Sequence record: EU863409
Reading direction: 5' to 3' (one strand)
From: Escherichia phage JS10
DNA length: 64,000 bases
In this document: positions 6,470-54,587 of the stretch, one piece after another
Layout: each line of letters starts with the position of its first letter
Numbering within the stretch: position 1 is the stretch's first letter
Translations under genes and position numbers: made by a program
The notes under the pieces: model-generated
The model's input: only the letters and a program-made list of their open reading frames with translations
Told to the model about the DNA's origin: nothing
The model's database searches: none

Positions 6470-7285
6470 ATGCTTAAAGAACAACTGATTGCCGAAGCAC
6501 AGAATATTGATGCTTCCGTTGCTCTTGACAGTATTTTCGAATCAGTTAATATTTCTCCGGAAGCAAAAGAAACTTTCGGCACTGTATTCGAAGCTACCGT
6601 CAAGCAACACGCCGTTAAACTGGCTGAGTCTCATATCGCTAAAATCGCTGAAAAAGCGGAAGAAGAAGTTGAGAAAAATAAAGAAGAAGCTGAAGAAAAA
6701 GCTGATAAGAAAATCCAAGAAGCTGCCGGTCGTTTCCTTGACCACGTCGCTAAAGAATGGATGGCTGAAAACCAGCTGGCTGTTGATAAAGGTATTAAAG
6801 CCGAACTGTTCGAATCCATGTTGATGGGTATGAAAGAACTGTTTGTTGAACACAATGTGGTTGTTCCAGAAGAAGCAGTGGATGTTGTTGCTGAAATGGA
6901 AGAAGAACTCCAAGAGCAGAAAGATGAAACCGCTCGTCTGTTCGAAGAAGTTGGTAAGCGTGACGCATATATTAATTACGTACAGCGTGAAGTTGCGTTG
7001 ACTGAAGCAACTAAAGACCTGACTGAATCTCAGAAAGAAAAAGTTAGTTCTCTGGTAGAAGGCATGGATTATTCCGATGCATTTGGTAAAAAAATTGGCG
7101 CTATCGTTGAAATGGTTAAAGGCCAGACTGACGTTGAAAAACCAATCACCGAAGCCGCTATAAATAAAACTGAAGACGATGCTGCAGCACTGAATTATAT
7201 TTCGGAAGCAGTTGAAGAAAAAGGCACTAAGCCTACCCTGTCCTTCGCGGACCTGTCTGCAATCGCAGCATCTCGAATTTCTTAA
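6470..7285 (+). CDS. 22: prohead core scaffold protein gp22
   Basis: 271 aa, E/K-rich coiled-coil-like composition, position between 21 and 23. Confidence 0.85.
   Translation: MLKEQLIAEAQNIDASVALDSIFESVNISPEAKETFGTVFEATVKQHAVKLAESHIAKIAEKAEEEVEKNKEEAEEKADKKIQEAAGRFLDHVAKEWMAENQLAVDKGIKAELFESMLMGMKELFVEHNVVVPEEAVDVVAEMEEELQEQKDETARLFEEVGKRDAYINYVQREVALTEATKDLTESQKEKVSSLVEGMDYSDAFGKKIGAIVEMVKGQTDVEKPITEAAINKTEDDAAALNYISEAVEEKGTKPTLSFADLSAIAASRIS
7159..7166 (+). promoter_or_regulatory. candidate late promoter box TATAAATA inside the 3' end of gene 22, upstream of gene 23
   Basis: exact TATAAATA about 140 bp upstream of the gene 23 ATG. Confidence 0.3.
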
Positions 7286-7306
7286 TTTAATAAGGTTATA
7301 CAACAC

Positions 7307-8866
7307 ATGAAAAAGAATGCATTAGTTCAAAAATGGTCCGCTCTGCTGGAAAACGAAGCTCTTCCTGAAATCGTTGGTGCTTCTAAACAAGCTATCATCG
7401 CTAAAATTTTCGAAAACCAGGAACAAGACATCCTGACTGCCCCGGAATACCGTGACGAAAAAATCTCTGAAGCATTTGGTTCTTTCCTGACCGAAGCTGA
7501 AATCGGTGGTGACCACGGTTATGATGCTACCAATATCGCAGCTGGCCAGACCTCTGGTGCTGTAACTCAGATTGGGCCGGCAGTAATGGGTATGGTTCGT
7601 CGTGCTATTCCTCATCTGATTGCTTTTGATATTTGTGGTGTTCAGCCTCTGAATAACCCTACCGGCCAGGTATTTGCACTGCGTGCAGTATACGGTAAAG
7701 ACCCTATCGCTGCTGGCGCTAAAGAAGCTTTCCACCCGATGTATGCTCCGAATGCTATGTTCTCTGGTCAGGGCGCTGCTCAGACTTTTGAAGCACTGGC
7801 TGCAGGTAAAGTTCTGGAAGTTGGTAAAATTTATTCTCACTTCTTCGAAGCTACCGGTGCTGCACACTTCCAGGCTGTTGAAGCCGTAACCGTTGATGCT
7901 GCTGCTACTGATGCCGCTAAACTGGATGTTGCCGTAACCGCTCTGTTGGAAGCTGGTCAGCTGGCTGAATTGGCTGAAGGTATGGCTACTTCTATCGCTG
8001 AACTTCAGGAAGGCTTTAACGGTTCTCAGGATAACCCGTGGAACGAAATGGGCTTCCGTATCGATAAACAAGTTATCGAAGCTAAATCCCGTCAGCTGAA
8101 AGCAAGCTACTCCATCGAACTGGCACAGGACCTTCGTGCAGTACACGGTATGGATGCAGATGCTGAACTGTCCGGTATCCTTGCTACCGAAATTATGCTC
8201 GAAATCAACCGTGAAGTTATCGATTGGATTAACTACTCTGCACAGGTTGGTAAATCTGGTATGACCAACACCGTTGGCGCTAAAGCTGGTGTGTTTGACT
8301 TCCAGGACCCGATTGATATCCGTGGTGCTCGTTGGGCCGGTGAGAGCTTTAAAGCCCTTCTGTTCCAGATTGATAAAGAAGCAGCCGAAATCGCTCGTCA
8401 GACCGGTCGTGGTGCTGGTAACTTCATCATCGCTTCCCGTAACGTAGTTAACGTACTGGCTGCAGTTGATACTTCTGTAAGTTATGCAGCTCAAGGTCTG
8501 GGTCAAGGTTTCAACGTTGACACCACTAAAGCAGTATTTGCCGGTGTTCTTGGTGGTAAATATCGCGTTTACATCGACCAGTATGCCCGTGCTGATTACT
8601 TCACCATCGGTTATAAAGGTTCCAACGAAATGGACGCAGGTATCTACTACGCTCCTTACGTTGCACTTACCCCACTGCGCGGTTCCGATCCGAAGAACTT
8701 CCAGCCGGTAATGGGCTTCAAAACTCGTTACGGTATCGGTATTAACCCGTTCGCTGACCCGTCTGCACAGGCTCCTACCAAACGTATTCAGAGCGGTATG
8801 CCTGACATCGTTAACAGCCTCGGTCTGAATGGTTACTTCCGTCGCGTTTATGTTAAAGGTATCTAA
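7307..8866 (+). CDS. 23: major capsid protein gp23
   Basis: 519 aa; long stretches match T4 gp23 as recalled (QAIIAKIFENQE, GSFLTEAEIGGDHGY, YAPYVALTPLRGSDPKNFQPVMGFKTRYGIGINPFA, YFRRVYVKGI). Confidence 0.97.
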   Translation: MKKNALVQKWSALLENEALPEIVGASKQAIIAKIFENQEQDILTAPEYRDEKISEAFGSFLTEAEIGGDHGYDATNIAAGQTSGAVTQIGPAVMGMVRRAIPHLIAFDICGVQPLNNPTGQVFALRAVYGKDPIAAGAKEAFHPMYAPNAMFSGQGAAQTFEALAAGKVLEVGKIYSHFFEATGAAHFQAVEAVTVDAAATDAAKLDVAVTALLEAGQLAELAEGMATSIAELQEGFNGSQDNPWNEMGFRIDKQVIEAKSRQLKASYSIELAQDLRAVHGMDADAELSGILATEIMLEINREVIDWINYSAQVGKSGMTNTVGAKAGVFDFQDPIDIRGARWAGESFKALLFQIDKEAAEIARQTGRGAGNFIIASRNVVNVLAAVDTSVSYAAQGLGQGFNVDTTKAVFAGVLGGKYRVYIDQYARADYFTIGYKGSNEMDAGIYYAPYVALTPLRGSDPKNFQPVMGFKTRYGIGINPFADPSAQAPTKRIQSGMPDIVNSLGLNGYFRRVYVKGI

Positions 8867-9283: not shown

Positions 9284-10567
9284 ATGGCAAAGATTAACGA
9301 ATTACTGCGCGAGTCAACAACTACTACCAGCAACTCATTGGGTCGCCCTAATCTTGTTGCTTTGACCCGTGCTACCACTAAACTAATTTATCGCGATATC
9401 ATCGCTGAACAACGTACTAGTCAGCCTATTGCTGCATTGTATGGTGTCAAATATCTTACCCCTGATAATGAATTCAGTTTCCAAACTGGTGCTGTTTATG
9501 GTGGTGAAGTTGGTTCTAAAGACCGTGAAACTATCCCGGAACTCACAGATAAAGCCCAGGCGATTGCCAAGGGTGACTACTTTAAGTATCAGAATGTGGT
9601 TTATAAGGCTCTTCAAGCAAGCCCACTCGCATCCACTAGCGCTACAGGATTGGCCGATGCTCTTCAAGAAGGTTTGGTGTCATTAACATGTCGTCTGGTT
9701 CCTGATGCAGCCCATACCACTAAATTCGAAGCGAGTAATGTAGAAATCTCTGATGCTGTATTCCAGGTTAATAAATGGAATGCTCCTGTTAAGACCCGTA
9801 AATTGAAGACTGCTTTGACTGTAGAATTGGCACAGGATATGGAATCAAATGGCTTCGACGCCCCTGCATTCTTAGAAGACCTCCTGGCTACAGTAATGGC
9901 AGATGAAATTAATAAAGACGTTCTGCAATCTCTGATAACCGTATCTAAACGCTATAAAGTTACCGGTGTATCTGATAATGGCATCATCGATTTGACTTAT
10001 GATAGTGCTCCGGAATCTGCCCGTAAACTTTATGAAATTGTCTGTGAGATGAATTCTGAAATCCAGAAAACTACTTCTTATTCTGGTACGTTTGTTGTGG
10101 CTTCAAGTCGTGTGGCTGCAATGCTTGCAGGTTCTGGCTGGTTAAAACATAGACCTGAAGATAATAATTGGCTCCCGGAAACTGCCTATGGTTATTTGTT
10201 GAATGGATTACCACTGTTCTGTGACGTTAACAGCCCATTGGATTATGTTATCGTAGGTGTTAAAGAGAACTATGGTGGTAATGAAGTTGTCGGTTCTATT
10301 TTCTATGCCCCATATACAGAAGGCCTGGATTTAGACGACCCAGAACACGTTGGTGCTTATAAGGTTATTGTCGACCCGGATTCATTACAGCCTTCTATTT
10401 CTCTGATGGTTCGTTATGCACTTTCGGCTAACCCATACACCGTAGCTAAAGACGACAAAGAAGCTCGTATTATCGACGCAACCAATATGGATTTAATGGC
10501 GGGCCAGAGTAATATGTCTTATCTGCTTGGTGTTAAACTTCCAGCAATTATTTACGAGGCTGATTAA
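9284..10567 (+). CDS. 24: capsid vertex protein gp24 (copy 1)
   Basis: 427 aa (same length as T4 gp24); gp23-like fold signatures (ELAQD, YYAPY); position after 23. Confidence 0.9.
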   Translation: MAKINELLRESTTTTSNSLGRPNLVALTRATTKLIYRDIIAEQRTSQPIAALYGVKYLTPDNEFSFQTGAVYGGEVGSKDRETIPELTDKAQAIAKGDYFKYQNVVYKALQASPLASTSATGLADALQEGLVSLTCRLVPDAAHTTKFEASNVEISDAVFQVNKWNAPVKTRKLKTALTVELAQDMESNGFDAPAFLEDLLATVMADEINKDVLQSLITVSKRYKVTGVSDNGIIDLTYDSAPESARKLYEIVCEMNSEIQKTTSYSGTFVVASSRVAAMLAGSGWLKHRPEDNNWLPETAYGYLLNGLPLFCDVNSPLDYVIVGVKENYGGNEVVGSIFYAPYTEGLDLDDPEHVGAYKVIVDPDSLQPSISLMVRYALSANPYTVAKDDKEARIIDATNMDLMAGQSNMSYLLGVKLPAIIYEAD

Positions 10568-11850
10568 TGTCTAAGATTATAGACCTAATTAAAGAATCCA
10601 CATTGACGGCTGCCAACTCGGTTGGCCGTCCTGCTCTTCTTTCATACACCCAAGCAACTAATAAACGAATCTTTAAAGCCCTAGTTGCTGAACAAAAAAC
10701 AAGCCAACCTGTTGCCGCTCTGTACGGGGTTCGTGTACTTAATCCTGACGACAAAATGACTTATCTTGGTGGCGCTACATTTGCAGGCCAGATTGGTATG
10801 TCGGAACGTGAAAATATTCCTGAATTTACCGATTCGTCTACAGCTTATGCAGCCGGCGATATGTTCCAGTTTGAAAGTGTAGTGTTTAAAGTTCTAGAAG
10901 CATCTCCTTTCGCCGGAACCACAGAAACCGACCTCGGTGAAGTTATTTCTGAAGCAGTGGCCGCTGGGCATATTCGTATGGTATCAGATGCTGCTATTAC
11001 TTCTAAATTTGAACAAGGCCACCCTGAAATTGCTGAAGCAGGCTTCCGTATTGACAAATGGCAATCTGAAGTTAAATCACGTAAACTGAAAACTTCATTG
11101 ACAGTCGAATTGGCCCAAGACCTAGAATCAAACGGGTTTAATGCTCCTAATTTCGTTGAAAATCTGCTAGGCATTCAAATGGCAGAAGAAATTAATAAGG
11201 ACGTATTACAGTCATTAATTACGGTGAGTTCTCGTTTTAAAGTCCAAGGTGTTTCTGAAAAGGGCGTATTAGACCTTACCAACCCACGTTACGATAATGC
11301 CCAGGACCGTGCTCGTACATTATATTATTACATGTGTGAGATGAACTCTGCCGTCCAACGTCAAACTTCTTTCGCCGGGACTTATGCAGTAGCTAGTTCT
11401 CGTTGTGCTGCTATTCTCGCCGCTTCCGGTTGGGTTGAGAAAAAGGAAGACCAAGACGAATTGGCTTATGGTGTATTAAAGAATGGTCTGCCTCTTTATG
11501 CCGATATGAATAGTCCATGTGATTATGTTATTGTTGGTGTAAATGCTCAGATGGGTGAAGGACAGACGGTCGCATCTTTATATTATGCGCCTTATACGGA
11601 AGGTTTGGATGTGGTTGATGAAGAAGGTGATACTTCAGTAGGTGAATTTAAGGTTATTGTTGACCCAGAAAGCTTACAACCTACAGTAGCATTGCTTGCT
11701 CGTTATGCATTGACTGCAAACCCTTATACCGTCGCTAAGGACGATAAAGAAGCCCGCATTATTGATGGCTCTGATATGGACAAAATGGCTAACCAAAGCC
11801 AGTTGAGTTCTTATCTTGGTGTAAAACTTCCTCCATTGGATAAAAACTAA
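10567..11850 (+). CDS. 24: capsid vertex protein gp24 paralogue (copy 2)
   Basis: 427 aa, collinear with copy 1 (TVELAQDLESNGF, DVLQSLITVS, YTVAKDDKEARIID); start overlaps copy 1 stop (TAATG). Confidence 0.85.
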   Translation: MSKIIDLIKESTLTAANSVGRPALLSYTQATNKRIFKALVAEQKTSQPVAALYGVRVLNPDDKMTYLGGATFAGQIGMSERENIPEFTDSSTAYAAGDMFQFESVVFKVLEASPFAGTTETDLGEVISEAVAAGHIRMVSDAAITSKFEQGHPEIAEAGFRIDKWQSEVKSRKLKTSLTVELAQDLESNGFNAPNFVENLLGIQMAEEINKDVLQSLITVSSRFKVQGVSEKGVLDLTNPRYDNAQDRARTLYYYMCEMNSAVQRQTSFAGTYAVASSRCAAILAASGWVEKKEDQDELAYGVLKNGLPLYADMNSPCDYVIVGVNAQMGEGQTVASLYYAPYTEGLDVVDEEGDTSVGEFKVIVDPESLQPTVALLARYALTANPYTVAKDDKEARIIDGSDMDKMANQSQLSSYLGVKLPPLDKN

Positions 11851-13650: not shown

Positions 13651-14658
13651 ATGGCAGATTCTATTTTTGGTCATGACGGTCGAGGGACCTTTTCCGGTAT
13701 TGCTTTAAAGGAATCGGATACTGTTATCCCTTTTGAAAAAATTCTTACTAAAGAAAGTCTTATAAACCCGGCAAGATTGGTAGGGAGTAATTCGTATGGC
13801 TTAGGCTTGGTTAGTAAATCCGGAAGAGCTGAAGTTCTGGCCCATTTGGGGATAACCGAAGAAATGTTATCCCCTGGTATCCCTGGCCCTAAAGGTGAAA
13901 GCATTGTAGGACCGAGAGGCCCGGCTGGTCCTGTAGGCCCTGTGGGTCTAAATTGGAAAGGAACATGGAGTGCTGCAACAGCCTATGTTAAGGATGATGC
14001 AGTAGGGTACAATGGGGCTTCTTATTTTTGCGTTCAGGATTCTACCGGTAATAATCCTGCTGAAGAAAACAGCCTTTACTGGGCCTTATTGGCTTCTCAG
14101 GGTGCACAAGGCGAACAGGGTATCCCGGGTAAAGATGGTGAGCAGGGTCCGCAAGGTGTTCAAGGTCCTCCTGGGGTGGATGGGATTGATGGACTTGACG
14201 GAGCTACTGGCCCTCTAGGTCCTCAGGGTCCTCAAGGCGAACCTGGTAAAGATGGCACAGATTTGTTTTCATTCCATAAGTATACCAACGTTGCTGCTGG
14301 GTACGGTGAAATAAAAATACCTGGGGTCGCCAATACGGTTCTTAGAGTTAGATTGGTTAACAACCAAATAGAATACAGCATTTTAAGTAAAGGTGGGACT
14401 ACCCGATATTGTGATTATCACTTTGTTGCTCCTAGTGTTTCGGGTGGAACGGTTACTACCGGTGGCGGAACTAAGACTTTGTCTCCTACAGGCTCATTTG
14501 TTATAGTAAGTGCGGCATATAACGGGCTACGTCCTATTAATATAACCTTAAAGGAATGGGGTTCTAAAACAATTTCAGAAATAACAGTATTTCAACACGG
14601 GCGCAGTGTAGATTCTAATAAACCTATATTGGTTAAAATGGTTAGTTTCCCTTATTAA
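13651..14658 (+). CDS. collagen-like (Gly-X-Y repeat) protein with non-collagen N- and C-terminal domains
   Basis: 335 aa; GIPGPKGESIVGPRGPAGPVGPVG and an uninterrupted run of about 18 G-X-Y triplets (GAQGEQGIPGKDGEQGPQGVQGPPGVDGIDGLDGATGPLGPQGPQGEPGKDG); AGGAG RBS. Confidence 0.8.
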   Translation: MADSIFGHDGRGTFSGIALKESDTVIPFEKILTKESLINPARLVGSNSYGLGLVSKSGRAEVLAHLGITEEMLSPGIPGPKGESIVGPRGPAGPVGPVGLNWKGTWSAATAYVKDDAVGYNGASYFCVQDSTGNNPAEENSLYWALLASQGAQGEQGIPGKDGEQGPQGVQGPPGVDGIDGLDGATGPLGPQGPQGEPGKDGTDLFSFHKYTNVAAGYGEIKIPGVANTVLRVRLVNNQIEYSILSKGGTTRYCDYHFVAPSVSGGTVTTGGGTKTLSPTGSFVIVSAAYNGLRPINITLKEWGSKTISEITVFQHGRSVDSNKPILVKMVSFPY

Positions 14659-14669
14659 TTGGAGGTAGC

Positions 14670-15530
14670 ATGTCTATACAAGTAAATGGACCTCATTATG
14701 AATTGGTTGGGAGAACGGTAACTCTTAGGGCTGTTTTATCTGAATCTTTAACTGACGCTGATATAAAATGGTACAAAAACGGTGTAAACGTTCCATTATT
14801 AGATAAAGAAGACCCGATGTATCTAAATCTTTGGGATGTAGGGTTTCCGGCTTCTGGGACCTATTATGCAATAGCAACCGATAAACTTACACAAGAGGTT
14901 TTTCAAAGCGACGATTTTGTTTTAGAAATAGGAATGGAGCCTAGAGATATAGTTATTTCCGTAGAAAATTTAGATGCTATCGTAAAGGCGGCCATAGGTC
15001 AAAAAGTTTCTTTACAACCTTTAATTTCTATGGGTGCCACGCCCTGGGCTGAAGTCGAGTGTGAATGGTGGAAATACGATAAAATGGTTTCAAATGTAAA
15101 GGATTTGGACGTTGATATAAATCCTTCTATGTACGGGACATATTCACTTAATGTTTCTGCTACCGCTGAAGGAGCCTATAATCCGTATCATGATATAGTT
15201 ACGGTAGATATCATGCCTTTAGATGGTATTTTACCAGAACCTGAAGTGTGTCCTTTTATATACTCGAATGATTTAAATCAATATTTGTCTTATCCTGGTG
15301 GAAGAAATAGGGCTCATATGTGGATAGGTTGGTGGGTATTGGATGAGATAAAAGGAGCCCTTGCTAAAGACCAGGATTGGGCTATCAATATAGAAGATAG
15401 CAATTTTAGGTATAAGTGTGAGCTCATGAAAGTGGCAGAACTTTTGTCACGATATCCTGATGTAGAAATACAGGAATCAAGAAATGGATACATTTTGAAT
15501 AGGAAGCACCTGACATTAAATGTCATATAA
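14670..15530 (+). CDS. Hoc-like paralogue: two Ig-like domains plus Hoc-type C-terminal capsid-binding domain
   Basis: 286 aa; GGAGG RBS 12 bp after the collagen-like gene; C-terminus (WIGWWVLDEI...YPDVEIQESRNGYIL) parallels the C-terminus of the 469-aa Hoc. Confidence 0.7.
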   Translation: MSIQVNGPHYELVGRTVTLRAVLSESLTDADIKWYKNGVNVPLLDKEDPMYLNLWDVGFPASGTYYAIATDKLTQEVFQSDDFVLEIGMEPRDIVISVENLDAIVKAAIGQKVSLQPLISMGATPWAEVECEWWKYDKMVSNVKDLDVDINPSMYGTYSLNVSATAEGAYNPYHDIVTVDIMPLDGILPEPEVCPFIYSNDLNQYLSYPGGRNRAHMWIGWWVLDEIKGALAKDQDWAINIEDSNFRYKCELMKVAELLSRYPDVEIQESRNGYILNRKHLTLNVI

Positions 15531-15531
15531 C

Positions 15532-15561
15532 AAAACGGGAGAGCGAAAGCTCTCCCGTTTT
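15532..15561. terminator. bidirectional hairpin AAAACGGGAGAGC-GAAA-GCTCTCCCGTTTT between the convergent hoc-like and hoc genes
   Basis: perfect 13-bp stem with GAAA loop and U-tracts on both strands. Confidence 0.75.
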
Positions 15562-15574
15562 TATTTAGCCAAAA

Positions 15575-16984
15575 TTAGTAAAAATAAATTATACCTGTGT
15601 CAAGAGCCGAACGATGGATAATTCTTCCATTTCGTGATTCTTGTACATCAACCTCTGGATAATCCGCAACCATTTTTTGAAGAGTGTAGCGATGGAGATA
15701 ATAATTGCTATCTGGGTCATCAGTTTTCCAATCTTTACCTTCAAGTGTCATTTTCTGGATTTCATCCATAACCCACCAACCGGCCCAAATATACGCTGAA
15801 TTACGAACCGGCAGCGGATGGACGTAAGGTAGTTCGCCTTCCGGTTCAGGAGCAACTTTAGGCGTAATTGTTACATTACCAGATTTTTTGACAGTCACAG
15901 GATTATAGTCGGTAGCCGAAACCACAACAGAAACTTCAATAACCTGTGAACCTTCAGCACTTGTATCGACTACTAAAGTATCTGTGGTGCCGGCAACAGG
16001 TGAACCATCTTTCTTCCAAGAATATGCAAAAGTAGCACCAGCAGGCGCACCTGCTACGGTAGCTTTAAAAGAAGCTGGAGTTCCTTCCGGAGTATTAATA
16101 GAGGCCGGCGCTAAAGTAACAGAAACACCTGTCATGGTCTTTTTAGTAATTGTTACACTTCCGGTTTTGGTAACGGTTAAATCGTTATAATCCGTACCTT
16201 TTAGGACTACCGAAACTTCAATAGTGTAAGAACCTACTGTAGATGTATCAACAGCAAGGGTATTACTGCTTTCGCCCGGAATAATAGAACCATTTTTCTT
16301 CCAAGAATAAGTTGCATTTACGCCGGAAGGAGCGCCAACTACATCCGCTTTAAACTGTGCAGATGAGCCTTTCTCTGTACTAATTGAGGCTGGTGTTAAA
16401 GTAACGGAAGCACCTGATATAGTTTTCTTAACAAAAGTTACCGCAATACCTTTAGTAGCTGTAGCCGGGTCATATTCAGGGGCGGTAACAGTAACTTCAC
16501 AGTTCAACGTGTAATTTGCTTCTGCTGCTTCAGTTACAGTAATAGTTTTACCAGTTTGACCTGAAATTACAGTTGTATTACGTTTCCAAACATAAGCCAT
16601 TGTAGCGCCAGCAGGGACACCCGATACGTTAGCAGTAACAACTTGGGATTGACCGATTTCTTTAGAAACGGAAGTAGGGTCTAAGGTCAAAGAAAGAGCC
16701 CCAATGGTCTTATTAGCTACAGTAACTTCAAAAGTTTTTTCAGCTACCTCAGGTTCGCCTTCGGTCGGAGTAGAAGTTGCTACTACTTTTAAAACTTTCT
16801 TACCAGCTGGAGCCGCACCGGTATATCTCAAAACATTGGTGGCCTCTGGATTAGAAGCACCGTCAATGGTCCATACATATGTAACGGTTCCTTCTACAGC
16901 TGCACCTGTTGCGGTAGCAGTGTAGTTGGCGCTTTCGCCTATTTTAATAGACGCAGCGCCGGCTATACTTACAGTAAAAGCCAT
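15575..16984 (-). CDS. hoc: Hoc outer capsid decoration protein, four tandem Ig-like domains plus C-terminal capsid-binding domain
   Basis: 469 aa; four repeats of roughly 90 aa with the pattern TYxWKKNG...Y; C-terminal WAGWWVMDEI...YPEVDVQESRNGRII. Confidence 0.85.
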   Translation of the reverse strand: MAFTVSIAGAASIKIGESANYTATATGAAVEGTVTYVWTIDGASNPEATNVLRYTGAAPAGKKVLKVVATSTPTEGEPEVAEKTFEVTVANKTIGALSLTLDPTSVSKEIGQSQVVTANVSGVPAGATMAYVWKRNTTVISGQTGKTITVTEAAEANYTLNCEVTVTAPEYDPATATKGIAVTFVKKTISGASVTLTPASISTEKGSSAQFKADVVGAPSGVNATYSWKKNGSIIPGESSNTLAVDTSTVGSYTIEVSVVLKGTDYNDLTVTKTGSVTITKKTMTGVSVTLAPASINTPEGTPASFKATVAGAPAGATFAYSWKKDGSPVAGTTDTLVVDTSAEGSQVIEVSVVVSATDYNPVTVKKSGNVTITPKVAPEPEGELPYVHPLPVRNSAYIWAGWWVMDEIQKMTLEGKDWKTDDPDSNYYLHRYTLQKMVADYPEVDVQESRNGRIIHRSALDTGIIYFY

Positions 16985-16993
16985 ATTTTACCC

Positions 16994-17665
16994 TTATTTT
17001 AAAGTTACGAAAGATGAATTACGCGTTTCACGTACTAATACTGAACCATTACGATTAATGTAATAAATCAGACTGAATAGTGTTTGGTGGGCAGATGGGT
17101 GTTGGAAATCTTTAGGGCGTTCTTTCCAATCAGGGGTTTCGGTAATCCATTGATAAATCCACCAAGGCACGGTACAATACCCTGGGTTTTTACCAATGAG
17201 TAAAAGATTAGGGCTAAAGTTTTCAGGCAAAGAGAATACAGGTTTTTCCGATTCAATAACCTTGGTTACGGCCTCTTTGAATTTCTCTTCGACAAACGGA
17301 ACATCTTCTTCAATAATCTCTACCTTAGGAAGTTCGGCTACCTCAATAACTTCAACTACTGCTTCAGGGGCATCAAATAATAGGGTAGCTTCTTCTTTGG
17401 CAGGTTCCGCACCATCAACAAATTCGTTAGCGCCTGTGAGTTCGTCGGCGGCATCAATCAAATCAGAAATAGACAAACCTTCGGTTTCTGGAAGTGGTTC
17501 ATCAGCCAAGGCTTTAAGGCCTTCAGAGATATCGATAATCAAATTATCAAACGAACGGGTTTTCTTAAGTTTTAAACCGAATTGTTCGCCGTATTCGATT
17601 AACTTAGCTTTAGCTTCTTTTTTATCTTCGAGTGCACGAAGCTCTTCAATATATTGAGTATCCAT
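16994..17665 (-). CDS. inh: probable Inh (inhibitor of prohead protease)
   Basis: 223 aa (T4 Inh about 226 aa), between hoc and uvsW as in T4; late promoter upstream on the minus strand. Confidence 0.5.
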   Translation of the reverse strand: MDTQYIEELRALEDKKEAKAKLIEYGEQFGLKLKKTRSFDNLIIDISEGLKALADEPLPETEGLSISDLIDAADELTGANEFVDGAEPAKEEATLLFDAPEAVVEVIEVAELPKVEIIEEDVPFVEEKFKEAVTKVIESEKPVFSLPENFSPNLLLIGKNPGYCTVPWWIYQWITETPDWKERPKDFQHPSAHQTLFSLIYYINRNGSVLVRETRNSSFVTLK

Positions 17666-17684
17666 AATTAGTCTCTTGTTGGTG

Positions 17685-17706
17685 TATAAATATAATTATA
17701 TTTATA
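17685..17706. promoter_or_regulatory. divergent late promoters: TATAAATA (plus, 17685..17692) for uvsW and TATAAATA (minus, 17699..17706) for inh-hoc
   Basis: two exact late boxes in opposite orientation within 22 bp. Confidence 0.55.
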
Positions 17707-17720
17707 ACTGAGAATTAGAC

Positions 17721-19217
17721 ATGCAAATTCAAGTACATTTTGATAATTTTAGTCATGTTCGTGTCGAGTGTGATGAATCCACCTTCTACGAACTCAGAGA
17801 CTATTTCAGCTTTGAAGCTGATGGATATAAATTTAACCCTAAATACCGTTACGGGCAATGGGATGGGAGAATTCGTCTTCTAGATTATAACCGTAAACTT
17901 CCATATGGTCTAGTCCCACAAATTAAAAAATTCGCTGACCAGTTTGAATACTCTCTGTGGATTGACCCACGTATTCTTGAACAGGAAGATATTTCTCGCG
18001 AAGATTTTGACTCATGGGTAGCTTCACAAGAGATTTATTCAGGTTCTACCAAGATTGAGCCGCATTGGTATCAGAATGAAGCCGTATACAACGGTCTGAC
18101 GAAACGTCGTGCAATTCTGAATTTACCTACATCTGCAGGTAAATCATTGATTCAGGCGCTCCTGAGTAGATATTATGTTGAGAACTATGAAGGTAAAATT
18201 CTTATCTTAGTTCCTACTACTGCACTTGTTGACCAGATGATTAATGACTTCATTGATTATCGTTTGTTCCCTAAAGCTGCTATGCTTGGTATTCGTTCAG
18301 GTACTGCTCGTGATTCCGATGCAATGATTTATGTTTCAACTTATCAAACGGCTATTAAACAACCTAAAGAATGGTTTGCTCAGTTTGGTATGTTTATGAA
18401 CGACGAATGCCATTTGGCGACAGGTAAATCAATTTCTACCATCATCGAAGGCCTAACCAATTGTATGTTTAAATTCGGTTTGTCTGGTTCTTTAAAAGAC
18501 GGTAAAGCCAATTTAATGCAATATATGGGTTTGTTTGGTGATGTGTTTAAGCCAGTATCCACTTCGCAGTTAATGGAAGAAGGACAGGTTACAGACCTTA
18601 AAATCAACAGTATTTTCCTTCGTTATCCGGATGAATTCACTGTTAAGATGAAAGGTAAAGATTACCAATCAGAAATAAAGGTCATTACTAAGGCTACTCG
18701 TCGTAATAAATGGGTTGCTAATTTAGCTGTTAAACTCGCTAAGAAAGAAGAGAACGTATTCCTGATGTTTAAAAACATCGAACACGGTAAAACTCTTTTT
18801 GAAATGGTTAAAGAGCAACATAAAGAAGTTTATTACGTATCAGGTGAAGTTAATACCGAAACGCGTAATGCTCTGAAAGTAATGGCGGAAAATGGTAAGG
18901 GTATTATTGTTGTGGCAAGTTATGGTGTGTTCTCTACTGGTATTTCCGTTAAGAACCTTCATCATGTTGTATTTGCTCATCCGGTAAAATCCAAAATCAT
19001 TGTACTCCAGACAATCGGTCGTGTACTCCGTAAACATGCTTCTAAATCAACAGCACAAGTTTGGGACATTATAGACGACATGGGCGTTAAGCCTAAATCA
19101 GCAAATGCTAAAAAGAAATATGTTCATTTGAATTATGCATTAAAACATGCCTTAGAACGTATTCAACGTTATGCTGACGAGAAATTTAATTACGTAATGA
19201 AACAGGTGGATTTATGA
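17721..19217 (+). CDS. uvsW: UvsW DNA/RNA helicase
   Basis: 498 aa; helicase motifs (NLPTSAGKS, DECH); position as in T4. Confidence 0.9.
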   Translation: MQIQVHFDNFSHVRVECDESTFYELRDYFSFEADGYKFNPKYRYGQWDGRIRLLDYNRKLPYGLVPQIKKFADQFEYSLWIDPRILEQEDISREDFDSWVASQEIYSGSTKIEPHWYQNEAVYNGLTKRRAILNLPTSAGKSLIQALLSRYYVENYEGKILILVPTTALVDQMINDFIDYRLFPKAAMLGIRSGTARDSDAMIYVSTYQTAIKQPKEWFAQFGMFMNDECHLATGKSISTIIEGLTNCMFKFGLSGSLKDGKANLMQYMGLFGDVFKPVSTSQLMEEGQVTDLKINSIFLRYPDEFTVKMKGKDYQSEIKVITKATRRNKWVANLAVKLAKKEENVFLMFKNIEHGKTLFEMVKEQHKEVYYVSGEVNTETRNALKVMAENGKGIIVVASYGVFSTGISVKNLHHVVFAHPVKSKIIVLQTIGRVLRKHASKSTAQVWDIIDDMGVKPKSANAKKKYVHLNYALKHALERIQRYADEKFNYVMKQVDL

Positions 19218-19441
19218 AGTCCTTTAAAGAAGTTATCTATGAAGCCTCTATCGAGAGCTTCATGTCTAAAATTAGTTCTTGTCAGACCATGGAAGGTCTG
19301 GAGGAATTAGAGAAGTATTACAAAACTCGTAGTAAGGAAGCCGAACTTCGTGATTCGGATGATATCAGCGTACGCGATGCATTGGCTGGTAAGAGAGCCG
19401 AATTGGAGTCGATGGACGACGAGGAAGAGGAAGATTTCTAA
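19214..19441 (+). CDS. uvsW.1: UvsW.1 (small acidic C-terminal partner of UvsW)
   Basis: 75 aa; ATGA overlap with the uvsW stop; ends DDEEEEDF. Confidence 0.65.
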   Translation: MKSFKEVIYEASIESFMSKISSCQTMEGLEELEKYYKTRSKEAELRDSDDISVRDALAGKRAELESMDDEEEEDF

Positions 19442-19450
19442 ACAAAAAAG

Positions 19451-19470
19451 GCCCAACCTTTCGGAAGGGC
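19451..19470. terminator. imperfect hairpin after uvsW.1
   Basis: GCCCAACC-TTTC-GGAAGGGC with an internal A.A mismatch pair. Confidence 0.3.
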
Positions 19471-19501
19471 CAATAACCATAAAATGGCTATACACACTAG
19501 A

Positions 19502-19669
19502 CTAAAGTAATAATTGTGTTTCGTTCAGCTGTTCTTCAGTGTTTTCCGTAACAGGCATGCTTTGAACGTAATTATAACATGAACCCGGATGAACCGGACC
19601 TTTTTCTGTTTCAACAACCAATGCAGCATCGATTGGAGTTTTACAGACAACGCAAATCTTATCTGACAT
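19502..19669 (-). CDS. hypothetical 55-aa Cys-containing protein (uvsY.-2-like position)
   Basis: translated by hand: MSDKICVVCKTPIDAALVVETEKGPVHPGSCYNYVQSMPVTENTEEQLNETQLLL; AAGGAGA RBS 5 nt upstream; below the ORF-track size cut-off. Confidence 0.45.
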   Translation of the reverse strand: MSDKICVVCKTPIDAALVVETEKGPVHPGSCYNYVQSMPVTENTEEQLNETQLLL

Positions 19670-19697
19670 GATTGTCTCCTTAGTTTAACTTACATAT

Positions 19698-19796
19698 CTA
19701 TTTATTACTTGCTAAAGCGGCATTAATGAATTCTTGGAGAAGTTTCATCTTATCGGCATCTACTTTAATGGGTTTGGTATTTTTAGTACGTCTCAT
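19698..19796 (-). CDS. hypothetical 32-aa ORF translationally coupled to uvsY (uvsY.-1-like position)
   Basis: ATG overlaps the uvsY stop as TAATG; MRRTKNTKPIKVDADKMKLLQEFINAALASNK. Confidence 0.3.
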   Translation of the reverse strand: MRRTKNTKPIKVDADKMKLLQEFINAALASNK

Positions 19797-20230
19797 TATT
19801 TGCCAGCCTCAAATTGTCTCATTTCATGCATGGTCTTAAGGTTAAAACCTCGCGCCTTAATAGCATCCAGTGCTGAACTACAAAAGTCCTGTAATAAGGC
19901 CCAATACTGGATTGATGTATCTATTTTAATCACGCTAGAATCTGCGGCCATTACAGTCTTTAATTCTGACTTCTCGTATTGGTCCATACAAACCTCATCA
20001 CCAGGCTCTCCACGTCCCGTGTAGAAATCTAATCGCTTCTTAAGTGAGGTCTTTTTCTGGATTTCTAATCGCATTATCTCTTTCTTACAATTCGTATACA
20101 GCCTTAGCCATTTGCTGTGCAGCAAAACATTGTTCTGTACTTCATACTGTAAACGAGTCCCATCAATCTTTAAATCTTCATCTAATGCATCTTGGAATGA
20201 TTCCAATTTATATTCAATCTCTTTACTCAT
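19796..20230 (-). CDS. uvsY: UvsY recombination mediator
   Basis: ORF 19796..20263; start at MSKEIEYK with AGGAAA RBS; close match to T4 UvsY as recalled (KWLRLY, KSELKTV, LQYWALLQDFCSSALDAIKARGF, FEAGK). Confidence 0.9.
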   Translation of the reverse strand: MSKEIEYKLESFQDALDEDLKIDGTRLQYEVQNNVLLHSKWLRLYTNCKKEIMRLEIQKKTSLKKRLDFYTGRGEPGDEVCMDQYEKSELKTVMAADSSVIKIDTSIQYWALLQDFCSSALDAIKARGFNLKTMHEMRQFEAGK

Positions 20231-20261
20231 CGCATGTTTCCTGTGTAATAACCATAAGACC

Positions 20262-20290
20262 ATTATACACTATTCATTTGAACAGCAATT
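20262..20290 (-). promoter_or_regulatory. candidate MotA-dependent middle promoter for uvsY
   Basis: minus strand reads aatTGCTGTtca-N-TATAAT; MotA-box-like element 11-14 bp upstream of the -10. Confidence 0.35.
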
Positions 20291-20678
20291 AACCACTCTG
20301 TGAGAGCTGGATTCTAATTTGCTCTAATGTATCCGGGTCATCAACAATACTAAACTGGACGGATACTATAATAGAGTTGTCATCATAAACAGGGGTAACG
20401 CCTACGGCAAGAGCAGAAATTCTGGGTTCGAAGTTCCGCACGGCGGAAACTATATTACGCTTAATGGTATCCGTAATTAATGGGGTAATATTCTCAAATA
20501 GTTGATTACTGATATCACAACCAAATTCAGGCATAAAAGGGCGAGAACCCTTACGAGTGGTAATAATGCCTAACAAACTATTTTTTACTGCACGGGCCCC
20601 TGTAGCTTTAGCGACGTCTCTATTCCAAGACGTCCTCATTTCGGGGTCCAAATCTGAATACATTTTATCGATATTCAT
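20289..20678 (-). CDS. 25: baseplate wedge subunit gp25
   Basis: 129 aa; near-identical stretches to T4 gp25 as recalled (NSLLGIITTRKGSRPF, PEFGCD, SAVRN, PVYDD). Confidence 0.9.
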   Translation of the reverse strand: MNIDKMYSDLDPEMRTSWNRDVAKATGARAVKNSLLGIITTRKGSRPFMPEFGCDISNQLFENITPLITDTIKRNIVSAVRNFEPRISALAVGVTPVYDDNSIIVSVQFSIVDDPDTLEQIRIQLSQSG

Positions 20679-21301
20679 TACATCACCTTAAAGAACTCTT
20701 TAAGTCCCTCAATAACGTGGACGGTATGCTCACCACATTCACAAGAAATAGGTATGGCCAAAATAGGCTTAGGGGCGACTAGAGCATCATAAACTTCTTT
20801 TACATCTTTTTCTGTTATCACAGAATAAAGGTCGTCTAGTTCCGCATCACTTAAATCAGAAAGAAGAAGCTTTTCACCTGCAGAAGTTAAAATATAATCG
20901 ATACATCCTGCAACCATCATAGCCCTATTTTTGTCTTCAAAGAGCTTAGGATATCTGAACACTATTTTAAAGTTGCCGAAGTCCTTAATAATATCAGGCT
21001 CTTTACCTAATGTAGCGCGGGTTAACGTCATAGGGACAACCTGGGAGCGGCCACAACTGCAAACCCACTCACGTTCTATATTCACTTCAGCTAGTGAATG
21101 GGCCCACAGGTTTATCACCAGGAGCTCAGATTCTTGCTTGTTTAAACCACGAGCATCTGTGCAATTCAAAATGAGTTCATTGATAAAGGGCTCTATTCTG
21201 TCTTCTAATTTAGCTTGGAGCAAGTCCTTATACTCTCTGAGGGTAAATGCTCTGCATTTTATGGTCTTGTTTTTAATTTTTACGTCAAAAGTATAATTCA
21301 T
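20678..21301 (-). CDS. 26: baseplate hub subunit gp26
   Basis: 207 aa (T4 gp26 about 208 aa); upstream of 25 with overlapping stop/start; AAGGAGA RBS. Confidence 0.8.
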   Translation of the reverse strand: MNYTFDVKIKNKTIKCRAFTLREYKDLLQAKLEDRIEPFINELILNCTDARGLNKQESELLVINLWAHSLAEVNIEREWVCSCGRSQVVPMTLTRATLGKEPDIIKDFGNFKIVFRYPKLFEDKNRAMMVAGCIDYILTSAGEKLLLSDLSDAELDDLYSVITEKDVKEVYDALVAPKPILAIPISCECGEHTVHVIEGLKEFFKVM

Positions 21302-21319
21302 TGTCTTCTCCTTTAAGCT

Positions 21320-21331
21320 TATTTATAAATA
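21320..21331. promoter_or_regulatory. overlapping divergent late promoters (TATTTATAAATA) for gene 26 (minus) and gene 51 (plus)
   Basis: 12-bp element contains TATAAATA on both strands. Confidence 0.5.
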
Positions 21332-21351
21332 CATCAATAAGAGGATACCCT

Positions 21352-22104
21352 ATGGCTAATATAGTACGTTGCGAAATGCCTGATGGAGTCCACCGATTTA
21401 AACCTTTTACAGTAGCTGATTATCGTGATTTTATTTTGATTCGAAATGATATGAATAATAAATCACCTGAAGAGCAAAAACAAATTTTAGATGAGTTACT
21501 GGAAGAATACTTTGGTGAGTACCCTGTGTCATGGCGCCCATACATGTTTATTGAATTGTATACGTCATCTCTCGGCAAGACCAAAATTCCTATCCGATAC
21601 ACTTGCAGTAAGTGTGAAAAGGATAGACAAGTTTTATTCAATTTGAAGCAGACCAAGTTAGTTAACCCTACAATTGAAGTGGCTGGCTTGAAATTGACAT
21701 TCAAATTCCCTGAAATAGAATATCATGATAAATCTGAATTGATTTTGAATACCCTCCAGACAGTAGAAGATGAAAATGGGGTTTATAACTGGTCAGACCT
21801 TTCTGAAGAAGACCAGTTAGCCGTAATAGATGCTATAGACTTATCTACTTTAGAGGATATAGTCAAACAAACAAGCCCTATTCATTTCGAGCTCAAATAT
21901 GGGTGCTGTAATCGTAGAACAATTACATACACTGACGTTTTAGAAGTGTTTAAACTTATAGTCAATCCGGATGAGATATTTTTATTTTACCAAATAAACC
22001 ATTTACTGGTAAAGAACAATTATTCATTAGAAAGCATTATGCAGATGATTCCAATCGAACGCGGTATTGCTTTGTCTTTGGTTGAAAAGGACCTTAAGAA
22101 ATGA
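21352..22104 (+). CDS. 51: baseplate hub assembly protein gp51
   Basis: ORF 21301..22104; start at MANIVRC (21352) downstream of the late box and an AAGAGGA RBS; 250 aa (T4 gp51 about 249 aa). Confidence 0.7.
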
Positions 22105-23270
22105 GTTCAAAAACTATGCAGCGTGAAGGCTTTCCTAATATTAGTATACGCCTTTACGAAGATTATGACGCCTGGTTAGAGCATCGTTTTGTTGAACTAG
22201 GCGCGACATTTACTACCCTAACAATGCGAGATGGTCTTTATGGTAATAATGAAGGATTGCTCCAGTTTTATGATGCAAAAAACCTTCATACTAAAATGGA
22301 TGGTGAACAAATTATCCAAGTTTCTGTTAAGAATGCCAACTCGGAACGTACCCAATCAAGAATTTACGGAAGTAAACACTTTGCAGTAGGGGTGGATTCT
22401 AAGGGCGACAATATCATAACAATACAACTCGCCCCTATCCACTTTTTAGAAAATCTTAAATTCGGACGTATGTTCTTCCCTAGTGTTCAAGAAACATTAA
22501 CCGAAATGATTGGGGTTATTTATCAAGACCGACCACTCCTTGCACCTCCATTGAACGGGATAAACGTTTATGTTCCTAATGTTCCGTGGTGTGATTCTAT
22601 GGACAGATATATGGAATTTGTACGAGAAGTTGGTATGGCCGTTGAATCCGATAAATTTGTATTTGTCTGGGAAGATATAGATGGTATTTCTATCATGGAC
22701 TACGAATTTATGGTTAATCAAGAGCCTATCAATTTTGTGGTTGGTGAGCCTCGTTTAATAGGCCAATATGTCCAAGATATGGATACTCCTATTGCATTTG
22801 ATTTTGAGTGGTTAACTAAAGCCAACCAACATACCCGAAAACCGTACGAAAATGCTACAGTATATGCCCATTCGTTCCTAGATAAAAACGCCACACGAAT
22901 TACTTTTGGTGACGGGCAAAACAGTATATTGGTTTCTCGTTCAGGTGGATATTCTGATTATACCTACCGAAACGGGTTTGAAGAAGCTGATAGATTGGTT
23001 ACTATGGCCCAGTATGATGGGTACGCTCATTGCAAGGTATATGGGAACTTTGAATTAACTCCGGGTGATAAGATTAACTTCTATGACCCTAAAAACCAAT
23101 TCCAATACGATTTTTATGTAGACGAAGTTATTCATGAAGTGAGTAACAATACATCAATTACAAACCTTTATATGTTTACTAATGGTAAGCCTATTAAGAT
23201 TGAAGAGCCACCGAAGGTTAAAAATGAACTTAAAACTGATACTCCCGATCAAGAAAATAACGCTGGGTGA
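22101..23270 (+). CDS. 27: baseplate hub subunit gp27
   Basis: 389 aa (T4 gp27 about 391 aa); order 51-27-28-29. Confidence 0.85.
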
Positions 23271-53375: not shown

Positions 53376-54029
53376 TTAAAACTTACAAGATTTGATAGTT
53401 TCAATGAACAATTTACGAGCTTCTAAATTATCGATTATAAGAATTTTCTTATAAGCATTTAATTTAGTCGAATACTTAGACCACACTAAATCGTTGGTCT
53501 GTTCATCATGTTTATTTATTATATCCATAAATGAATCAAGCAAAATAAACGTTTCGAATGAAATAACATTCGATTGAAGGAGCTTAAAAATATAGCTCGA
53601 GTTAACTTTTTTATTATATTCAAAAATTTCAGAAAGCGCTTGAACTTCCACTTTCTTACTGAAATAATAGATGTTTTTGATATCATCCTCAAAAACTTGT
53701 TTTATTCTTTTAAGTCTACCGATATATTCTCGGTAAAAGACTAAGGCGTCAGCATCACTGATGTCGCCAATCCATGCGTCTTGGTTAGCCACCAAGTTAC
53801 TCATGAAGATAAGAGCAAGCTCTTTCAAAGTGTATTTATCACTCAATTTCTCGAAGAAATATTTGTCACGACGTTTTTGGTAAGCCGTATCAGAGATTCG
53901 CATGACCCAGTTATATTTTATAACGTCGTATTTGGCGTTGAAGTGATGTTTGAGCATTAAGTATAGTGAATATACGCTCTTACCATTCACCATACGATTA
54001 TTGTTTGGTGGCATGCGAATCTTAATCAT
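53376..54029 (-). CDS. 59: helicase loader gp59
   Basis: 217 aa (same as T4 gp59); position between 33 and 32. Confidence 0.85.
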   Translation of the reverse strand: MIKIRMPPNNNRMVNGKSVYSLYLMLKHHFNAKYDVIKYNWVMRISDTAYQKRRDKYFFEKLSDKYTLKELALIFMSNLVANQDAWIGDISDADALVFYREYIGRLKRIKQVFEDDIKNIYYFSKKVEVQALSEIFEYNKKVNSSYIFKLLQSNVISFETFILLDSFMDIINKHDEQTNDLVWSKYSTKLNAYKKILIIDNLEARKLFIETIKSCKF

Positions 54030-54328
54030 AACAAGAAATCCAGGGTATTAGTTTTTTGCGTTCGTGCCATTGAAGGCCGAAGCAAGTTATCATCAATGGC
54101 CTCGTTCATAATTTTATCAATAATTCCTGCAGGCAAATAACGAGCAAAGTTACCTTCAGGGATGCTGTTCTCTTCCAACCATGCGGTAGCCGCTTCGAGG
54201 TAACTACAACCTTCAGCCTCAACAAAGGCCTCAATATCAAGGCCATTCTGTTGTTTATTTACCAATACATGGACAGGTTCAGAAGCGGTATTAACCGCTC
54301 CATCAAAATCATTCAAAGATTGTGTCAT
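54026..54328 (-). CDS. 33: late transcription co-activator gp33
   Basis: 100 aa, acidic; position between dsbA and 59. Confidence 0.65.
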   Translation of the reverse strand: MTQSLNDFDGAVNTASEPVHVLVNKQQNGLDIEAFVEAEGCSYLEAATAWLEENSIPEGNFARYLPAGIIDKIMNEAIDDNLLRPSMARTQKTNTLDFLL

Positions 54329-54587
54329 ACAGTTCTACCACTTCAGTTTTTTCGTCTTCGAAACGTTCACGAGTGCCTTTATGATACAGGGAGAACAGCT
54401 GGTTAAACATTTTACCGTCTACACCAAGTTCGGTCTTAGCACGGTCTTTGATATCTTTAATTTCGTCACCATATGCTTCCATTTTTAATTTGGTATCGGA
54501 AGCAGTTTTAATCAATTGGGCTAGGGTATTACCATGTTCTTCTTGGTTGAATTCAACTTTCACTTTTTCTTTAGCCATTATATTCAC
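54309..54587 (-). CDS. dsbA: DsbA (double-stranded DNA-binding protein)
   Basis: 92 aa (T4 DsbA about 89 aa); position next to rnh. Confidence 0.7.
   Translation of the reverse strand: MNIMAKEKVKVEFNQEEHGNTLAQLIKTASDTKLKMEAYGDEIKDIKDRAKTELGVDGKMFNQLFSLYHKGTRERFEDEKTEVVELYDTIFE

Follow-up and report, generated by a model that had tools for sequence, protein, structure and literature searches.

The window, by which we mean the whole 64-kb stretch of JS10 DNA that was analysed, matches T4-like Dhakavirus genomes over the region 16500-22500, at 98.6% for phage Ec2-ASingh, 97% for EcWhh-1 and 92-97% for JS98 and IME08, and on these matches it is Dhakavirus DNA, from a T4 relative of the JS98/IME08 kind. 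Genes were named from the annotation of JS98 and IME08 (92-97% identity) together with Pfam scans of the window ORFs. The A+T content of the window is 60%, its intergenic DNA being still more AT-rich. Two junctions between divergent late operons concern us here. At the first, site A, a gap of 55 bp separates a leftward late unit, inh-hoc (15575..17665, minus strand), from a rightward one, uvsW and uvsW.1 (17721..19441, plus strand). The leftward unit consists of inh (16994-17665, ATG at 17665) and hoc (15575-16984), both named from the IME08/JS98 annotation and separated by 9 bp. The rightward unit consists of uvsW (17721-19217), identified by the Pfam domains UvsW_N, ResIII and Helicase_C and by the annotation of relatives, and of uvsW.1 (19214-19441), named from relatives.

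At the far end of hoc, a terminator scan found a GC-rich, bidirectional terminator-like hairpin with T runs on both strands (15537..15556; a consensus match only). This hairpin sits between a converging plus-strand ORF, which ends at 15530, and hoc, which ends at 15575, and it is the probable 3' end of the inh-hoc unit. The converging side holds two plus-strand ORFs (13651-15530), Hoc-like in IME08 and tail fiber / Hoc-like in Kosakonia phage 305, which are absent from T4 at this place; no exact late box lies near them, the nearest variant box (13267) being 371 nt upstream. Further to the left, the capsid vertex gene 24 has been duplicated in tandem, giving adjacent plus-strand ORFs of 427 aa (9284-10567 and 10567-11850) with 57% mutual identity; unlike this adjacent pair at 9284-11850, gene 24 is single-copy in T4.

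To the right of uvsW.1 come uvsY.-2, uvsY, gene 25 and gene 26, in that order and all on the minus strand according to the annotation of relatives, and after them the second junction, site B. Here a gap of 50 bp separates a leftward baseplate unit (20289..21301, minus strand), formed by gene 26 (20678-21301, ATG at 21301; Pfam T4_baseplate and relatives' annotation) and gene 25 (20289-20678; relatives' annotation), from gene 51 (21352-22104, plus strand; Pfam T4_baseplate and relatives' annotation) and gene 27 (22101-23270, plus strand; annotation of relatives). Genes 51 and 27 are the start of a rightward baseplate-hub unit (21352..23270) that continues into gene 28 and onward. The start of gene 51 was set at the ATG at 21352, which is preceded by the Shine-Dalgarno sequence AGAGGA and agrees with the JS98 and T4 annotations. 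The IME08 record (L001, NC_014260) sets the starts of inh and gene 51 too far upstream (1998-2720 and 6890-7693), so that both frames run over the promoters; its gene 51, which corresponds to window positions 21301-22104, begins at a TTG, overlaps gene 26 and spans the promoter.

Both gaps hold two opposed, exact copies of the T4-type late-promoter box TATAAATA. Site A (17685-17706) reads TATAAATA-TAATTA-TATTTATA, a perfect 22-bp palindrome in which a plus-strand box serving uvsW and uvsW.1 (17685..17692) is followed by the 6-bp spacer TAATTA (17693..17698) and by a minus-strand box serving inh-hoc (17699..17706), which reads TATTTATA on the plus strand. A box scan of the window found no further exact minus-strand box for inh-hoc. 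Site B (21320-21331) is TATTTATAAATA, a perfect 12-bp palindrome with the box on both strands, and its minus-strand box serving genes 26-25 (21320..21327) and plus-strand box serving genes 51, 27, 28 and onward (21324..21331) have TATA (21324-21327) in common. The original prediction had placed opposed exact boxes at 17685-17706, for uvsW on the plus strand and for inh and hoc on the minus strand, and a 12-bp element at 21320-21331 with a box on each strand, for gene 26 (minus) and gene 51 (plus); the exact boxes are indeed present at the first site, the sequence confirms the element at the second, and the annotation of relatives and the Pfam scans bear out the gene assignments. The term back-to-back that it used for both sites is apt for 21320-21331, where the boxes overlap by 4 bp, but not for 17685-17706, where they face each other.

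The ALTERNATIVES considered were that only one box per site is functional, that the palindromes serve a regulator or form a cruciform, and that the pairs arose by chance. The last holds that AT-rich octamers co-occur by chance in AT-rich intergenic DNA, and the 60% A+T of the window, with intergenic DNA richer still, is in its favour. Against it, the window contains 17 exact boxes compared with 6.8 +/- 2.6 in dinucleotide shuffles, none of 100 shuffles reaching 17, and it contains two opposed pairs within 40 bp where 0.044-0.048 are expected. At least two such pairs appeared in 1 of 1000 dinucleotide shuffles and in 2 of 1000 local 60-bp shuffles, so the excess persists when local composition is kept, and the conservation of the pairs at orthologous positions in dozens of genomes refutes this explanation, whose probability we regard as practically negligible.

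The positions at which the four promoters would start were inferred from the published location of the T4-type late box, which occupies -13 to -6 (T4 late-promoter literature). With this register, the predicted +1 is an A in all four cases. At site A the order from left to right is plus-strand box, minus-strand start (17693), four bases (17694-17697), plus-strand start (17698) and minus-strand box, placing the two predicted starts, both of which fall in the spacer, only 5 bp apart. The two transcripts would diverge without overlap, and each box corresponds to positions +2 to +9 of its partner. Because boxes and starts are interleaved in this way, each mRNA leader is expected to open with the complement of the partner's box, and both leaders, of 23 nt to the uvsW ATG at 17721 and of 28 nt to the inh ATG at 17665, open with A-UAUUUAUA. 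Between -13 and +9 the two site A promoters of JS10 do not differ at any base. Site B is back to back in the strict sense: initiation is predicted at 21314 and 21337, a distance of 23 bp, with leaders of 13 nt to the gene 26 ATG at 21301 and 15 nt to the gene 51 ATG at 21352. The facing layout thus gives leaders of 23 and 28 nt in 55 bp, versus 13 and 15 nt in 50 bp for the back-to-back layout, and longer leaders may be the reason why compact junctions have facing boxes.

All four boxes lie between genes, and the purine at which each is predicted to start precedes, by 13-28 nt, a start codon equipped with a Shine-Dalgarno sequence. In this they are typical of the window, where most exact boxes also fall between genes and have their predicted purine start 13-58 nt before an ORF. 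Late boxes in general also prefer Y(-1)R(+1) at the predicted register, a preference shown by 12 of the window's 17 boxes and by 18 of 32 T4 boxes. The four boxes carry the sequence features of T4-type late promoters (an 8-bp box, a purine start in register and a position a short leader away from a late gene), and site B has the arrangement of a T4 26/51-type overlapping divergent pair, in which opposed boxes with bases in common lie between the gene 26 and gene 51 start codons. Moreover, the late co-activator gp33 is encoded inside the window, by gene 33 (54026-54328, minus strand; Pfam PF16805, E = 1e-25), with genes 55 and 45 located beyond its 64 kb; gp55 is present in all sequenced T4-related genomes (T4 late-transcription review).

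On each side of both sites, what lies upstream is antisense DNA of the adjacent operon, and so each of the four units needs a promoter of its own within the 50-55-bp gaps. Sigma-70-like sites are not enriched in the window (21 found versus 21.8 expected), and sigma-70-type promoters were rejected on this count as another source of transcription. The same evidence weighs on the explanation in which one box of each pair works, the other being a by-product of an AT-rich box that is close to self-complementarity, and its gene is reached by read-through or from another promoter. Partial symmetry of this kind is cheap, since TATAAATA and its complement TATTTATA differ at two positions only. The T4 late-transcription review cautions, in addition, that some listed T4 late promoters come without proof of activity in vivo, and the minus box of site A takes the variant form AATAAATA in Tequatro-, Mosig- and Gaprivervirus. 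However, upstream of each unit there is only antisense DNA of the neighbouring operon, with no other late box and no enriched sigma-70 site from which a box-less gene could be served, and the variant in question, A at -13, is the commonest accepted variant of the T4 late box according to the same review.

The conservation of the two sites bears on this explanation more directly. We compared 14 annotated genomes from 12 genera and 57 further IMG/VR loci that were retrieved via UvsW alignment, and both boxes of each pair are kept across about a dozen genera while the flanking bases drift. At site B, T4 carries the 12-mer TATTTATAAATA unchanged, as do all except four of the approximately 65 relatives that have genes 26 and 51, a conservation that reaches down to 54% UvsW identity with flanks free to vary. 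Three of the four exceptions still hold two opposed boxes: in L052 and L053 the 12-mer is embedded in the longer TATTTATAAATAAATA, and in L067 the site is flipped to TATAAATATTTATA, with facing boxes and a 2-bp overlap. The fourth, L051, was unreadable, its gene 26 coordinates being unreliable.

At site A, the form TATAAATA-N6-TATTTAT(A/T) was found in 33 distinct sequences. The plus box is invariant in all 33, and the minus box is either exact or, in 9 of the 33 (Tequatro-, Mosig- and Gaprivervirus), the A(-13) variant AATAAATA. Among these sequences there are 14 distinct spacers, and all of them fit the pattern T-R-N-N-T-R, which fixes only the predicted -1 and +1 positions, T(-1)R(+1) for the plus promoter and Y(-1)A(+1) for the minus promoter, and leaves the two middle bases free. 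This is the pattern that selection on two working starts would yield, and it provides the strongest evidence available from sequence comparison that both orientations are used. Flank lengths differ among the 33 sequences and the 6-bp length of the spacer is constant. This length may be under selection or may simply be inherited, the spacer being short and N10-N13 being tolerated in distant relatives.

In distant relatives the opposed pair at inh/uvsW is retained in other layouts, with boxes facing across N10, N12 or N13, back to back across N6 or N11, or overlapping in a 12-mer (IMG/VR loci L059, L060, L063, L064, L066, L067, L037 and L051). This variation indicates that the exact geometry is not essential: what is conserved is the opposed pair itself, and the precise site A geometry is specific to a clade. 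The persistence of both boxes of both pairs over about a dozen genera while their neighbours drift, the constraint on the site A spacer at -1/+1 of both promoters, and the retention of two opposed boxes in distant phages with a changed geometry all argue against a single working box per pair, which we consider very unlikely.

A variant box of the A(-13) type was also seen elsewhere in the region. The small ORF uvsY.-2 (19502-19669) has AATAAATA at 19699-19706 on the minus strand, from which transcription is predicted to begin 24 nt before the ORF, and this is likely to be an additional late promoter for uvsY.-2.

The comparison of spacers is also informative about the palindromes themselves, which could mainly serve a dimeric DNA-binding regulator, for example DsbA, or a cruciform, and not bidirectional initiation. 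Both palindromes are perfect, over 22 bp (17685-17706) and 12 bp (21320-21331), and the window contains dsbA (54309-54587, minus strand; Pfam PF11126, E = 1.5e-25), whose product has been reported to bind AT-rich sites overlapping late promoters. However, none of the 13 other distinct site A spacers is self-complementary, including TAGTTA and TAACTA of the closest relatives and those of JS98 and IME08, and the 22-bp palindrome forms a weak hairpin (-3.6 kcal/mol as DNA), two observations on which a hairpin or cruciform role for it was rejected. The affinity of DsbA is reported to be low and its gene to be non-essential (T4 late-transcription review), and among distant relatives the arrangement of the boxes shifts while both boxes persist. 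Taken with this evidence, a main role as regulator sites or cruciforms appears highly improbable. Gene 33 and dsbA overlap by 20 nt (54026-54587, minus strand), and the review reads the conserved overlap of these two genes as a sign of translational coupling.

The explanation that we favour, and that we hold as a whole to be very probable, is that both sites are compact pairs of T4-type late promoters dependent on gp55, which drive transcription in opposite directions from between divergent late operons. The units they separate look like four divergent late transcription units, each with its own box acting as a working late promoter. The original prediction had called the four boxes late promoters, and their placement, the Shine-Dalgarno sequences behind them, the conservation of two boxes per site and the presence of gene 33 are what one would expect of working ones.

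How two such promoters would behave at so short a distance can be approached from what is established for T4. There, gp55 reads the box through bases of the non-template strand and the open complex is melted from -12 to +2; gp33 touches the upstream duplex, and gp45 surrounds the DNA where the complex ends upstream, lengthening the footprint by 13 bp (T4 literature). Placed on JS10, the predicted bubbles would span 17686-17699 and 17692-17705 at site A, with 8 bp in common, and 21313-21326 and 21325-21338 at site B, with 2 bp in common. At each site, one open complex would melt and hold a stretch that includes its partner's box, and we infer that polymerase could for this reason sit in only one orientation at a time on each copy of the DNA, so that the direction would be chosen at each initiation. 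The activation of late transcription by the gp45 clamp is orientation-specific (T4 late-transcription literature), and the two directions would draw on clamps of opposite orientation, so that they should not compete for the clamp. The competition between late promoters raised in the original prediction can accordingly be divided, its steric part being supported by the overlap of the predicted bubbles and its clamp part not supported, given the orientation dependence of gp45 activation.

The symmetry of site B extends to the genes around it. Both gp26 (20678-21301, minus strand) and gp51 (21352-22104, plus strand) give end-to-end matches to Pfam T4_baseplate (PF12322). Their pairwise comparison yields 20% identity (E = 5e-5), and the comparison of their profiles with hhalign, colinear over 185 columns and with Cys pairs in common, yields a probability of 98.9% (E = 1.8e-17). 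These matches mark the two proteins as ancient paralogs, encoded head to head around the palindrome. The T4 tail review describes gp26 and gp51 as hub-assembly chaperones, with homology between the two unmentioned there. The head-to-head layout is consistent with an old inverted duplication having the palindromic promoter as its axis. No inverted repeat of the DNA around the 26/51 palindrome was found beyond the 12-mer itself, and a recent inverted duplication was rejected on that basis.

A bolder proposal joins these two lines, making the pairs into direction toggles set by replication and the 26/51 palindrome into the axis of an ancient inverted duplication of a unit composed of a late promoter and a hub-chaperone gene; we think it unlikely. 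As toggles, the pairs would fire on each DNA copy in the direction dictated by how the arriving gp45 clamp is oriented, and hence by which strand carries the nick or the lagging-strand primer, and the ratios of uvsW to inh-hoc and of 26-25 to 51-27 would be coupled to the direction of fork passage. The duplication, if it took place, would mean that the two paralogs 26 and 51 stay co-expressed. Returning to the divergent late promoters as such, site A is a natural template with an internal control, which could be used to test in vivo the clamp polarity rule that was established in vitro. Since its two promoters are identical from -13 to +9, any asymmetric use must stem from the surroundings, for example from the orientation of the clamp, the direction of the fork or supercoiling.

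Both sites have counterparts in T4. At T4 26/51 (NC_000866, 116450-116461) the identical 12-bp TATTTATAAATA stands at the orthologous position, with similarly short leaders and Shine-Dalgarno sequences, and only the flanking leader sequences differ from site B of JS10. Scarlato et al. (Virology 1989) reportedly showed by experiment that overlapping late promoters direct the divergent transcription of the T4 26/51 cluster. Both 26/51 promoters are annotated as late promoters in the GenBank record of the Mosigvirus SA79RD, and the T4 RefSeq record NC_000866 contains no promoter features. At T4 inh/segE (112021-112042) the sequence is TATAAATA-TAGATA-TATTTATT, with a 6-bp spacer and a position beside the inh start as in JS10. 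The minus box at inh is the A(-13) variant in T4 and exact in JS10, and the perfect 22-bp palindrome is particular to the JS10 spacer TAATTA, the T4 inh/segE spacer being TAGATA. A further difference is the homing-endonuclease gene segE, whose insertion in T4 separates the plus promoter from uvsW, whereas the JS10 plus promoter serves uvsW directly. T4 uvsW has its own promoter, embedded in segE, and published work on T4 recognises a late promoter ahead of inh and a promoter ahead of segE.

Genome-wide, T4 has three opposed pairs and no more, and each of its three late/late divergent junctions holds one of them, namely 4/53 (facing, gap of 7), inh/segE (facing, gap of 6) and 26/51 (overlap of 4). 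The 4/53 pair (NC_000866, 77349-77371), which falls outside the JS10 window, consists of facing boxes in a 47-bp gap between divergent late genes, and it differs from site A of JS10 in its genes and in having a spacer of 7 bp and not 6 bp. In relatives (L077-L084), the 4/53 junction has facing boxes separated by N7, N14 or N15. Sites A and B are therefore best described as orthologs of T4 pairs at which late promoters are already recognised, which makes them ordinary for T4-like phages. As late promoters have been recognised at the orthologous T4 positions, our analysis adds little to the biology; its value lies in the annotation, with four late promoters and their likely starts placed in this Dhakavirus.

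Outside the T4-like phages, the closest comparison is with the bidirectional sigma-70 promoters of E. coli (Warman, Grainger), which rely on the symmetry of the -10 element: an AT-rich, pseudo-symmetric element is used by polymerase in either direction, and one direction excludes the other. Interference between the directions is seen there only at high activity, when one of them is strongly activated, which offers a published parallel to the steric competition proposed for the JS10 sites. The JS10 pairs are unlike these promoters in their gp55 specificity, their 8-bp box, the lack of a -35 element and their use of an orientation-specific sliding clamp in place of -35 contacts or classical activators. 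The starts of the E. coli promoters are commonly 18, 10 or 23 bp apart. Site A, with predicted starts 5 bp apart between two separate boxes, lies outside the common sigma-70 configurations listed. Site B, in its sequence, resembles the promoters with a shared -10 element, as its two boxes share TATA, its predicted starts are 23 bp apart, a spacing that is also among the common E. coli ones, and its predicted bubbles overlap by 2 bp.
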